Assembly: GCF_000179635.2 (NCBI RefSeq)
Contig: NC_014833.1
Coordinates: 2,220,001-2,252,000, forward strand
Direction: 5' to 3'
Length of the DNA stretch: 32,000 bases
DNA from: Ruminococcus albus 7 = DSM 20455
GTDB lineage: Bacteria > Bacillota > Clostridia > Oscillospirales > Ruminococcaceae
Shown: positions 17,413 through 18,695 of the stretch, one piece after another
How the letters are laid out: every line of letters begins with the position of its first letter
Numbering within the stretch: position 1 is the first letter of the stretch
Notes under the pieces: generated by a model
What the model was told of the DNA's origin: nothing
Database searches by the model: none
The model's input: the letters and a program-made list of their open reading frames with translations, nothing else
Position numbers and translations under genes: made by a program

Positions 17413-17964
17413 ATGAAAAAACTGATAAGCGGCATGACCGCATTTACAATTGCAAGTATGATGACAGTTACAGCTTTTGCAGAAGCAGCCATCAGTAATA
17501 CGACCATCACCCCTAAAGGCGGCGACCCTTTTGACGTGAACCCTACCCCCGAAACGGCGGGCGCGACGGTCGAATTTAACGTTGACCCGACCTACACCGT
17601 GACAATACCCGCAAGCTTCGAGCTTACAGGCGAATACGGACAACAGTATTCGGGCAGCGGCACCATTCAGACCGGCAAGGTATTCCTGAATGAGGGCGAA
17701 AAGATAGTTGTCACCCTGACAAGCGCAAGCAAGTTCAATATGTCCCACGAGGGTGCAGGCGAGTATAAGCTCCCCTACACCGCCGAGGGAAGTTTTGGCA
17801 AGCTGACAAACAAGGAAACAGGCGGCAAGGTAGCCGAATTTCCCACCTCGACCGAACCCGCAAGTGCCGGTATCTCTTTCACCACCGATGAGACACCCAC
17901 ATTCGCAGGCAAGTACACCGACCCCGTAGTATTCGGAATTTCTATTGAAAAGGAGCCATCATAA
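17413..17964 (+). CDS. Island gene 4: secreted protein consisting of the shared module
   Basis: I place the start at ATG 17413 (MKKLISG), 8 nt after AAGGAGG, rather than the track start at 17392, which overlaps gene 3. The signal peptide ends VTAFA|EA. The module reads [15 protein letters not shown]...[16 protein letters not shown]. Confidence 0.85.
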
Positions 17965-18695
17965 TGAAAACTAAAAGATTACTGGCGGCAGGCATGGCGC
18001 TGACTATGATAACATCTGTCTGCACACTGACCGCAAACGCTATGCAGATATTCGTCAAGACACTGACAGGCAAAACTATAACTCTTGATGTTGAACCCAG
18101 CGATACTGTTGAAAACGTTAAGGCTAAAATACAGGATAAAGAGGGCGTAGCTCCGGATGCACAAAGACTCATCTTTGCAGGCAAACAGCTTGAAAATAAC
18201 AAAACTCTTGCAGATTACAATATCCAGAAAGAAAGCACCCTGCATATAATCTTTAACCTTACACAAATAGTTCCCGATACCGATAATTTACCTGACCCTA
18301 AGCCATCTTCTGCAGGACTGGAAGTTTCATATGAGGTATCGCCCACCTACACAGTAGTTATCCCCGCAAGCGTAACTCTATCAGACACCGAAGAGACCAC
18401 CAAGCCGATAACTGCAACAGACGTCAGACTTGCGCAGGATTCAAAGATAGTTGTCACCCTTGACAGCGCATCTAATACCGCAAGCGGCAGTACATTCAAT
18501 GCAAAGATAGGCGATTCCACCGCGAATTATACCATAAAGTCCGATAATGCAGACGTATCGGTAGGCGGCACAGTTGCAGAGTTCGATACCAAGACAGGCG
18601 AGCAGTCCAAGACACTGGCATTCTCCAAGGCAACAGGCGCGACCTACGCAGGCAAGCACACCGAAACGCTGACCTTTGGTATCAAAGTTGAATAA
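17964..18695 (+). CDS. Island gene 5: signal peptide + eukaryotic-type ubiquitin domain + linker + shared module
   Basis: 243 aa. The ATG overlaps the gene 4 stop (TAATG), with AAGGAG 8 nt upstream. Residues 1-26 form a Sec signal peptide (cleavage TANA|MQIF). Residues 27-99 are the ubiquitin fold (see findings). Residues 100-118 form a Pro/Asp linker. Residues 119-243 form the shared module ([18 protein letters not shown]...[16 protein letters not shown]). Confidence 0.9.
18042..18260 (+). other. Ubiquitin-homology segment within gene 5
   Basis: The segment [73 protein letters not shown] was aligned by hand, without gaps, to canonical ubiquitin. It is 59/68 identical over residues 1-68 and all 7 Lys are conserved. 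Confidence 0.9.

Follow-up and report, generated by a model that had tools for sequence, protein, structure and literature searches.

Introduction

Ubiquitin is emblematic of eukaryotic cell biology, and in the literature that we searched only Bacteroides, with BfUbb and BoUbb, appears as a bacterial holder of a eukaryote-like version of it. The papers on BfUbb (2012, 2018) described Bacteroides fragilis as the sole bacterium to have a ubiquitin homologue, and a later one (2024) added BoUbb of B. ovatus; both proteins carry a signal peptidase I signal, lack the C-terminal Gly-Gly (GG) and antagonise related strains via a periplasmic peptidyl-prolyl isomerase (PPIase) and the SusCD-type importer ButCD. 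Here we analyse a stretch of 32,000 nucleotides from the chromosome of Ruminococcus albus 7 = DSM 20455 (NC_014833.1, positions 2,220,001 to 2,252,000; hereafter, the window), in which an open reading frame (ORF) at 17964..18695 on the plus strand encodes a 243-aa protein (ADU22468.1, WP_013498630.1, UniProt E6UAP6) composed of a predicted signal peptide, a ubiquitin domain, a linker and a C-terminal module. Our best reading, to which we give a probability of roughly 55%, is that it is an exported ubiquitin mimic displayed and held at the cell surface; it would belong to a broad prokaryotic class whose members carry a signal peptide and a ubiquitin on each lineage's own anchor.

BfUbb and BoUbb are eukaryote-type, act outside the cytoplasm and are GG-less; like them, the R. 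albus protein has a signal peptide and no GG. BfUbb, however, is a free, diffusible 76-aa toxin of a Gram-negative, is 63% identical to human ubiquitin and ends in Cys, whereas the R. albus domain is 79% identical to human ubiquitin and is fused to a 125-aa module encoded in a structural operon of a Gram-positive. BfUbb, whose sequence was checked by its 167-bit match to PDB 8hm3_A and by the published 63% identity, agrees with human ubiquitin at 48/76 positions and with the R. albus domain at 45/76, against 60/76 between the R. albus domain and the human protein; the two bacterial ubiquitins are separate lineages.

Near-canonical ubiquitins are also encoded outside cellular eukaryotes by viruses (giant viruses, entomopoxvirus and the baculovirus v-Ubi), but these differ from the R. 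albus protein in being free, with LRLRGG intact, no signal peptide and no fusion partner. Bil/Bub operons, in turn, combine adjacent E1-like, E2-like and JAMM/deubiquitinase (DUB) genes with a ubiquitin-like protein (Ubl) that ends in Gly, and none of these is found for the R. albus fusion. The full-text literature searched, whose coverage is incomplete so that absence is no proof, held no description of this protein or of fusions of a signal peptide, a ubiquitin and an anchor, and the BfUbb papers and a β-grasp review make no mention of such fusions. A preliminary description of the window had named BfUbb as the sole precedent, a view that gives way to the family of ubiquitin-module proteins in rumen and gut Clostridia and the cross-phylum class reported below. 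The R. albus protein is apparently a secreted bacterial eukaryote-like ubiquitin that is tethered, Gram-positive and carried on a pilin-fold module, and the wider class is apparently undescribed.

A near-canonical ubiquitin without its conjugation tail

The gene and the site ahead of it divide as follows:

17950..17955, plus strand: Shine-Dalgarno-like AAGGAG, read directly, 8 nt 5' of the ATG at 17964
17964..18041, plus strand: predicted signal peptide, aa 1-26 (charge +3, hydrophobic core, Ala at -3 and -1)
18042..18260, plus strand: ubiquitin domain, aa 27-99, corresponding to ubiquitin 1-73 (Pfam, phmmer and AlphaFold2, AF2; GC content at third codon positions, GC3, 0.39 against 0.52 in the module)
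18261..18320, plus strand: flexible Pro/Asp-rich linker, aa 100-119 (predicted local distance difference test score, pLDDT, of at most ~51 in both AF2 models)
18321..18695, plus strand: predicted pilin-like β-sandwich module, aa 120-243 and stop codon (AF2, Foldseek and family search)

Residues 29-98 match the Pfam ubiquitin family (PF00240) with E=7.9e-29 and 99.7 bits against a cut-off of 25.4, and in a phmmer search of PDB sequences residues 27-99 align without gaps to ubiquitin 1-73 (E ~1e-35 per single-ubiquitin chain); the public label of E6UAP6/ADU22468 is accordingly already "ubiquitin-like protein" or "Ubiquitin" (NCBI, UniProt). The preliminary description had counted 59 of 68 identities over ubiquitin 1-68 and 60 of 76 overall from a hand alignment to canonical ubiquitin, and the same figures are obtained with alignment software, as are the retained positions and the altered tail that it had listed. 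The nine changes within ubiquitin 1-68 are E16D, I23V, I36V, P37A, Q40A, D52N, G53N, R54K and S57A. All seven lysines (K6, K11, K27, K29, K33, K48 and K63) are present and an eighth is added by R54K; of the I44 patch, L8, I44 and H68 are kept and V70 is replaced by Ile. The full-length AF2 model, which had been proposed as a check, gives this part the β-β-α-β-β-β secondary structure of a β-grasp (pLDDT 83-92), followed by a disordered linker and a confidently modelled module, and its predicted template modelling score (pTM) of 0.51 points to two independent domains. Residues 27-97 thus form, with high confidence on the strength of alignment and model, a genuine ubiquitin β-grasp with its I44 patch and lysines and no GG.

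The LRLRGG tail is replaced by FNLTQI, which runs on into the linker, so that the tail is not one that an E1 could activate and the domain should not be conjugatable via its C-terminus. This bears on the idea of a cytoplasmic ubiquitin-like modifier in a Bil/Bub-type or eukaryote-like E1-E2-E3 system, an idea lent some background by the existence of ubiquitin-like conjugation systems in bacteria and archaea. Besides lacking a C-terminal Gly, however, the protein has a signal peptide and a ubiquitin of eukaryotic rather than Bil/Bub type; no E1, E2, E3, DUB or JAMM domain occurs among the ORFs of 100 aa or more in the 32-kb window, as the preliminary description had held when it set the locus apart from Bil-type operons, and no E1, E2, JAMM or DUB gene is conserved beside ubiquitin in the 80 prokaryotic loci examined below. 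This anatomy excludes such a modifier, to which we give a vanishingly small probability.

Base composition changes within the gene: the ubiquitin part (18042-18260) has a GC content of 0.39 and a GC3 of 0.39, like the core genes of R. albus, and the module part (18315-18692) a GC content of 0.50 and a GC3 of 0.52, like the operon. This step suggests different histories for the two halves.

Predicted export and maturation

Translation very probably starts at the ATG at 17964, with export by the Sec pathway and a signal peptidase I cut between TANA and MQIF that would leave Met1 of ubiquitin as the mature N-terminus. We predict this with high confidence from the net charge of +3, the 17-residue hydrophobic core, the Ala residues at -3 and -1 and the alignment of paralogues, all of which speak for the 26-aa signal first proposed. 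In the paralogues of the same operon the cleavage sites (..TAFA before E) align with that of the fusion, and ubiquitin is inserted exactly between signal peptide and module. The AF2 pLDDT of residues 1-26 is ~33. No ribosome-binding site (RBS) comparable to the AAGGAG ahead of 17964 precedes the internal ATG of ubiquitin Met1 at 18042, and the TAA stop codon of the preceding 190-aa gene overlaps the ATG of the ubiquitin gene by one base, which suggests translational coupling of the two. Across 75 prokaryotic ubiquitin fusions, Met1 is invariant, the residue at -1 is Ala in 62 and that at -3 is Ala or Val in 63. The predicted mature protein has 217 aa, comprising ubiquitin, linker and module.

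A lipoprotein anchored via Cys20 was considered and rejected, as TSVC is no lipobox and the Cys is absent in the relative at locus L002.

Related fusions in Clostridia

With the full-length protein as query, searches were flooded by eukaryotic polyubiquitins, and homologues were therefore sought with the module alone. This search returned four clusters of ubiquitin fusions from rumen-type metagenomes (P0122, P0191, P0192 with 60 members, and P0193), and the fusions of Clostridia form a graded series of ubiquitin divergence that reaches 70/76 identities (92%) to human ubiquitin in P0193, where the tail keeps LRLR and continues with SD.

The ubiquitin is not confined to one subunit. In R. albus 8 (L015:9986-11926) and in RUG10798, a related genome assembled from a metagenome (L019:4617-6581), it heads a homologue of the 853-aa protein encoded further upstream in the R. 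albus 7 operon, with X25 and β-helix domains confirmed by Pfam for the former. Ubiquitin has thus moved between subunits and behaves as an exchangeable head of the module system. An Oscillospiraceae metagenome-assembled genome (MAG; locus L007) encodes two adjacent ubiquitin-module genes, at 9273-9974 and 9995-11056; in the first, which has E16, an intact LRLRGG leads directly into the module (..LRLRGGNTITVEYV..), and in the second the ubiquitin is diverged and bears an insertion. Relatives that retain LRLR (P0193) or LRLRGG (L007) are thus still fused at their C-terminus.

Clostridia MAGs from goat and buffalo gut also hold small tandem genes (L017:7057-7623 and L017:7620-8174; also L016:7412-7960) whose products consist of a signal peptide, a ubiquitin with an LRLRNY, LRLRGY or LRYRGV tail and an unknown domain of ~80-90 aa.

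Tethered ubiquitins across prokaryotic phyla

We scanned one genome per species from 185,579 bacterial and archaeal species with two peptide patterns derived from the alignment of fusions, which gave 383 matches, 273 of them encoding a ubiquitin relative; 80 of these 273 loci were examined. In about 70 of the 80, a near-canonical ubiquitin directly follows a signal peptide. Over residues 1-72, identity to human ubiquitin is typically 85-95% (median 66/72, range 54-70). The class is degenerate at residues 73-76, and only 4 of 75 members keep LRLRGG. The same design of signal peptide and ubiquitin is found on other surface anchors in more than 10 prokaryotic phyla, and most C-terminal partners that we scanned are either anchors to the surface or large scaffolds of surface proteins. 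Our survey probably underestimates the class, because examples with E16 appear as second genes in L007 and L017.

The partners belong to several kinds of surface protein, among them 1) autotransporters (type Va) of Proteobacteria, Verrucomicrobiota and Planctomycetes, in which the homologous ubiquitin is the only passenger behind its signal peptide and the β-domain is recognised by Pfam (L022:10007-11269, in the complete chromosome of Limnohabitans sp. DCL3; L034:1754-2959; L035:1154-2407; L053:10001-11293; and L060:6501-7952, in Rhodopirellula), in contrast to the R. albus protein, which has no β-barrel, 2) a Cohnella protein that joins ubiquitin to cadherin-like, fn3 and three SLH domains, 3) a protein in a complete Arcobacter genome with an NHL propeller and SbsC, 4) giant YDG/MBG proteins of the rumen isolate NK3B98, and 5) proteins of archaeal MAGs labelled Methanobacteriota (L040:9668-10444 and L044:2261-2929), in which a pilin-type N-terminus and a spacer of ~65 aa precede a ubiquitin with an LRLRSS or LRLRGN tail. 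The archaeal type IV pilin N-terminus (PF07790) is confirmed by Pfam for L040 and judged by sequence similarity for L044, and these two look like an archaeal version of tethered ubiquitin. Loci L069, L075, L077 and L080 are suspected eukaryotic or viral contaminants.

Free proteins consisting of a signal peptide and a ubiquitin that ends in LRLRGG are encoded in Hyphomonadaceae and Collimonas MAGs (L039:9803-10240 and L079:5851-6177). Their architecture is similar to that of BfUbb, except that the GG tail is intact. A rival reading is that the R. albus protein is itself a BfUbb-like diffusible antibacterial toxin, whose ubiquitin, free or cleaved off the module, would be released and bind an essential envelope protein of competitors. 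BfUbb and BoUbb are the only characterised eukaryote-like ubiquitins of bacteria, the signal peptide and the loss of GG are shared with them, and the fusion has no covalent anchor. In R. albus, however, ubiquitin is attached to a structural module that a structural operon encodes, and the autotransporter, SLH and pilin tethers of other phyla fit display; moreover, no immunity-like gene is evident, the BfUbb route of SusCD import and a periplasmic target is absent in Gram-positive targets, and the identity of the R. albus ubiquitin to BfUbb does not exceed that of BfUbb to human ubiquitin, from which BfUbb is far more diverged than the class described here. A toxin of this kind seems to us improbable, at roughly one chance in eight.

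Three further observations come from these searches. For L025, L027, L041, L047, L061, L064 and L076, the same minimal autotransporter architecture was judged by eye alone. A protein of 330-410 aa is conserved beside the ubiquitin fusion at four β-proteobacterial loci (L030:4974-6137, L051:1946-3172, L056:3606-4595 and L062), whose hosts are Rhodoferax, Acidovorax, Methylophilaceae and Methylotenera. The only, weak, matches on plasmids or chromids are in Pseudoalteromonas shioyasakiensis (NZ_CP077771.1:864532-864777 and CP076682.1:832863-833108), with ~40% identity to the ubiquitin region in proteins labelled "Ig-like domain-containing" or "tandem-95 repeat", and represent a distant ubiquitin-like domain in a giant surface protein.

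Age, selection and origin of the ubiquitin domain

The GC3 of the ubiquitin segments correlates with the GC content of the host locus (r=0.89, n=78), from 0.11 in Arcobacter to 0.89. Compared with the window copy, the proportion of synonymous differences (pS) is 0.6-1.0, near saturation, at all loci but that of R. albus KH2T6 (L001, pS 0.18), and the proportion of non-synonymous differences (pN) is 0.07-0.19. Within the same Ruminococcus-type genes, the non-synonymous divergence (dN) of ubiquitin is 3-7 times below that of the module at comparable synonymous divergence (dS): between the window and L002, dN is 0.068 for ubiquitin and 0.192 for the module, and between L008 and L009 it is 0.039 for ubiquitin (dS 0.56) and 0.234 for the module (dS 1.19). 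Because codon usage tracks the host, synonymous sites are saturated and ubiquitin dN is low, the ubiquitins of the class are old resident genes under purifying selection, not contamination or recent imports. A eukaryote-to-bacterium transfer, put forward initially as the simplest reading, is for R. albus no longer the simplest history if meant as a recent event, given the saturated synonymous sites, the host-matched codon usage and the existence of closer relatives (70/76).

The same data bear on an artefact, that is, an assembly chimera or eukaryotic contamination from a rumen protist or the host, which had been named at the outset as a potential refutation and for which one could cite the very high identity to eukaryotic ubiquitin and the step in GC3 from 0.39 to 0.52 within the gene. 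The fusion lies on the closed 3.69-Mb chromosome of R. albus 7 (ATCC 27210), and clustering at 90% identity places it in a group of 14 proteins, each 243 aa long, that come from several isolates of R. albus and from independent NCBI, JGI, ENA and Logan assemblies; together these findings exclude a chimera or contamination. The same fusion recurs elsewhere at 40-97% identity with synteny, and the ubiquitin part, in frame and provided with a signal peptide and an RBS, shows the divergence of a resident gene, with a dS of 0.2 to KH2T6 and saturation in the other comparisons. The probability that we leave to an artefact is negligible.

Selection acts on the surface of the domain as much as on its interior. 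Exposed ubiquitin residues are 83-100% conserved, as much as the core and including V70 and E64; class-wide, the seven lysines are conserved at 87-100%, L8, I44 and H68 at 95%, and D58, Y59 and E34 at 100%. That ubiquitin has stayed near-constant while synonymous sites became saturated argues that the surface of ubiquitin has a conserved use outside the cell. The β-grasp fold tolerates far more sequence change than this, other Ubls sharing it at less than 20% identity, and the constraint thus points to recognition of the ubiquitin surface itself.

This conservation also weighs on the view that ubiquitin is a passive N-terminal cap, serving folding, solubility or protease resistance with no specific partner. 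In the bacterial loci examined, ubiquitin almost always forms the very start of the mature protein and its C-terminal partners are very diverse, both as expected of a cap; ubiquitin fusions are used to raise recombinant yield and solubility, and eukaryotes make ubiquitin as N-terminal fusions to ribosomal proteins. On the other hand, the sole-passenger autotransporters and the free signal peptide-ubiquitin proteins (L039, L079) leave nothing to chaperone, most proteins of the module family manage without ubiquitin, stability of the fold needs no ~90% identity to eukaryotic ubiquitin, and it is the surface residues (lysines, I44 patch, D58 and E64) that are conserved despite synonymous saturation. 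A cap seems unlikely to us, though less so than the toxin.

As to origin, the Clostridia group carries the signature D16, P19, N53 and A57, and the Gram-negative fusions D16, P19, G53 and S57. The latter combination is also the commonest (47/77) among ubiquitin genes in IMG/VR (loci L082-L161), for which the scan pattern leaves residue 16 unconstrained and many of whose contigs have giant-virus MAG identifiers; one gene (L084:5007-5237, contig 3300035703_002413) has D16/P19/N53/A57, the signature of the Clostridia fusions. The viral genes inspected encode free ubiquitins with no signal peptide or fusion, most of them ending in LRLRGG or LRLR. Among eukaryotic units, those nearest to the least-diverged bacterial copy, 3 of 72 residues away, belong to several lineages and single out no donor; aquatic or rumen protists and their viruses are a plausible source pool. 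An origin from phages was considered and is unsupported, since a tblastn search of phage genomes gave no match and the IMG/VR matches are free ubiquitins mostly on giant-virus contigs.

A predicted pilin-like module with exchangeable heads

Downstream of the linker, whose length and sequence vary among relatives, lies a module of ~125 aa that begins with the conserved EVSYEV...PTYTVVIP and includes a conserved C-terminal strand. It is common to the 853-, 281-, 190- and 168-aa proteins encoded next to the fusion (23-41% identity to it), and the alignment thereby bears out the Pro/Asp linker and the module shared by four neighbours that had been noticed at first. The description of this part as a surface-protein module likewise stands, and can be sharpened to a predicted pilin-like β-sandwich in an operon that ends with an NPXTG substrate. 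AF2 models the module as a sandwich of eight β-strands (pLDDT 88.6 alone and 92-97 in the full-length model), and the top ~50 Foldseek matches in the PDB are nearly all chaperone-usher pilins (FimA, CfaB, PapA, PapE, CsuE, CsuA/B, SafA and Caf1). At the sequence level, neither the module nor the paralogues are assigned to a family by Pfam (E<=10) or NCBIfam; the 168-aa paralogue gives a sub-threshold match to SCPU (PF05229; E=0.0024, 18.7 bits against a cut-off of 22.4), and DUF4402 reaches E=0.1, so that no SCPU, Fimbrial or DUF4402 match is above threshold. The likeness to pilins, as judged from the models, would be a resemblance of fold, and homology is not demonstrable from sequence.

Clustered at 50% identity, the module family comprises 3,926 representatives with E<=1e-3. 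Inspected members have one module each, never in tandem, and no tandem-module protein was found among the "two-stretch" matches checked, in which the second stretch is a C-terminal add-on domain. Besides ubiquitin, the N-terminal heads placed on this module include LRR_5 (BspA-type leucine-rich repeats, LRR), DUF285, DUF6273 and Big_2, and the C-terminal add-ons a ~90-aa "DTW" domain and Big_2. Exchange of heads and add-ons can be followed in P0231-P0374, for example in P0313, P0327, P0297 and P0245.

In its layout of head, linker and predicted Ig-like pilin fold, and in having several single-module paralogues encoded together, the system resembles the tip adhesins of chaperone-usher pili (FimH, PapG) and SCPU/Csu pilins; it differs from these in having no outer membrane, chaperone or usher, with a membrane protein and an NPXTG substrate instead. 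The WxL/Csc clusters of lactobacilli and enterococci consist of a membrane-anchored protein, secreted proteins with a common C-terminal module and a small sortase-anchored protein, and are alike in operon logic, but the module has no WxL match and its motif ends in F rather than W, so that this is an analogy only. Identity with WxL domains was rejected, as no match to PF13731 was obtained at E<=10 for the module or the scanned paralogues.

The operon

The fusion is encoded in a block of genes on the plus strand:

13180..13208, plus strand: sigma-70-like promoter match, TTGACA-17-TAAAAT with TG extension; a consensus match only (11/12), the best ahead of the operon
13409..13960, plus strand: first operon gene, 183-aa protein ADU22464, with an N-terminal transmembrane helix and a β-rich ectodomain
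13974..16535, plus strand: 853-aa secreted protein ADU22465, with an X25-like domain (PF22058, E=6e-8), Gly-rich β-helix-like repeats and a C-terminal module
16554..17399, plus strand: 281-aa paralogue ADU22466, with signal peptide, module and C-terminal add-on of ~110 aa; 41% identity to the fusion over the module
17392..17964, plus strand: 190-aa paralogue, signal peptide and module only; 38% identity
18708..19214, plus strand: 168-aa paralogue ADU22469, signal peptide and module (alignment; synteny conserved)
19227..19793, plus strand: 188-aa NPXTG protein ADU22470 (NF033846 Rumino_NPXTG, 24.3 bits against a cut-off of 23.5)

A terminator-like hairpin (13050-13082) lies just before the promoter-like site. 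ADU22464 has no Pfam or NCBIfam match, and its homologues are encoded directly 5' of module or ubiquitin genes at 10 Clostridia loci. The fusion itself ends in ...TFGIKVE, with no sortase sorting signal. ADU22470, which consists of a signal peptide, a small β domain, a Ser-rich stalk, NPATG, a transmembrane segment and a charged tail, is the sole sortase substrate of the operon and the conserved last gene in L001, L002, L005, L007 and L013. Genomes of Ruminococcus, Oscillospiraceae and Faecousia share one order of genes, which runs from the membrane protein through the large module protein, small module proteins, ubiquitin-module protein and module protein to the NPXTG protein.

A proposed ubiquitin mimic at the cell surface

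The preliminary description had suggested a ubiquitin mimic, displayed or released and perhaps a decoy or ligand, and a mimic is still what we favour. Given export, we think it probable, though with clearly less assurance than for the earlier steps, that the flexible linker of ~20 aa joins ubiquitin to a module that inserts the protein non-covalently in a multi-subunit surface assembly, made of the module paralogues and the membrane protein and fixed to peptidoglycan by the NPXTG sortase substrate. Ubiquitin would be the distal head, in the place taken in other family members by BspA-type LRR, DUF285, DUF6273, Big_2 or X25/β-helix heads; the layout would be like that of the two-domain tip adhesins of chaperone-usher pili, and the outcome like that of the Gram-negative ubiquitin-autotransporters. 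More tentatively, and at somewhat less than even chances, the displayed ubiquitin may be bound, as a ligand or mimic, by a partner that recognises the surfaces of canonical ubiquitin. The likeliest partners would be rumen ciliates, anaerobic fungi, the host or plant material, and a bacterial partner, as for BfUbb, is also conceivable. Cross-kingdom interaction, be it predation, attachment or mimicry, is the obvious candidate for the extracellular use of ubiquitin.

A number of points weigh against this interpretation. Export, cleavage, surface location and expression are all things that we infer. To our knowledge, no extracellular ubiquitin receptor is known in rumen organisms. The ubiquitin of R. 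albus 7 is the most diverged copy in its series, and I36V, P37A, Q40A and L69I/V70I/L71F/R72N alter its I36 patch and strand β5, changes that could mean that its function is relaxed or has shifted. No anchoring motif is present in the fusion itself, which could therefore be released rather than retained. As for the pilin likeness, the Foldseek matches reach E-values of only 1e-3 to 0.1, though with TM-scores of 0.45-0.59 and a probability of ~1 for the leaders; a profile of the module finds only chance matches among PDB sequences, and no pilin; neither AF2 monomer model forms a strand from the candidate donor segment (EVSYEV, TVTYEV), which is conserved before the first strand and left unpaired; and scans with Pfam and NCBIfam reveal no chaperone or usher gene in the operon. 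The survey, lastly, is biased to D16 variants by the pattern KTITLDVE and covers 80 of the 273 loci.

In its widest form, a surface-displayed mimic would be one of a set of pan-prokaryotic "exo-ubiquitins" of eukaryotic or viral type, kept by selection and displayed by an autotransporter, by SLH domains, by an archaeal pilin N-terminus or by a clostridial sortase-anchored pilin-fold assembly, perhaps polymerised by donor strands with no chaperone or usher, which engage the ubiquitin-recognising machinery of eukaryotes (grazing protists, fungi and hosts), for example against predation or for attachment. We regard this extended scenario as speculative and, taken as a whole, rather unlikely.

If display holds, many bacteria and some archaea of the rumen, gut, freshwater, sea and soil would keep a surface-tethered, near-eukaryotic ubiquitin stripped of its conjugation tail, an idea that is testable in the cultivable R. 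albus 7 and 8, Limnohabitans, Arcobacter and Cohnella. The large, uncharacterised family of pilin-fold modules with swappable heads in Gram-positive gut and rumen bacteria (~3,900 clusters at 50% identity) is relevant to the way in which fibre-degrading Ruminococci construct their surface, and there are practical angles in antigenic ubiquitin mimicry by gut and rumen bacteria and in natural scaffolds for surface display.

Genomic surroundings of the operon

The plus-strand block from 13.4 to 19.8 kb has a GC content of 0.44-0.52 against ~0.40 in its flanks, which hold housekeeping genes (recN, argR, the NAD kinase gene, rrmJ, dxs, ispA, xseA, nusB and asp23 on one side; the transketolase gene, lspA, divIVA and sepF on the other). 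Between R. albus 7 and KH2T6 (L001), only 12945-13978 and 16148-20071 of the window are in common, and the genome flanking the operon is unrelated in KH2T6. The operon is 90-97% identical in DNA between the two strains apart from the head of the large subunit (window 13978-16148 against L001 7223-8572); this subunit has 853 aa in R. albus 7 and 449 aa in KH2T6, and the two heads have no DNA homology. This pattern looks like the behaviour of a cassette with head swapping. The preliminary description had placed the fusion on a mobile island; the higher GC content, the adjacent IS66 element and the different context in KH2T6 give this partial support, and mobility of the cassette is plausible.

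The adjacent element is flanking context, outside the ubiquitin operon system:

20896..23206, minus strand: IS66-family element of three genes, encoding a helix-turn-helix protein, TnpB_IS66 (PF05717, E=1e-40) and DDE_Tnp_IS66 (PF03050, E=4e-88)

On the same strand, the interval 20588-23206 holds the IS66 genes plus an extra Cys-rich ORF of 108 aa, and a pair of imperfect inverted repeats of 35 nt lies near the element, at 20342-20376 and 20578-20612.

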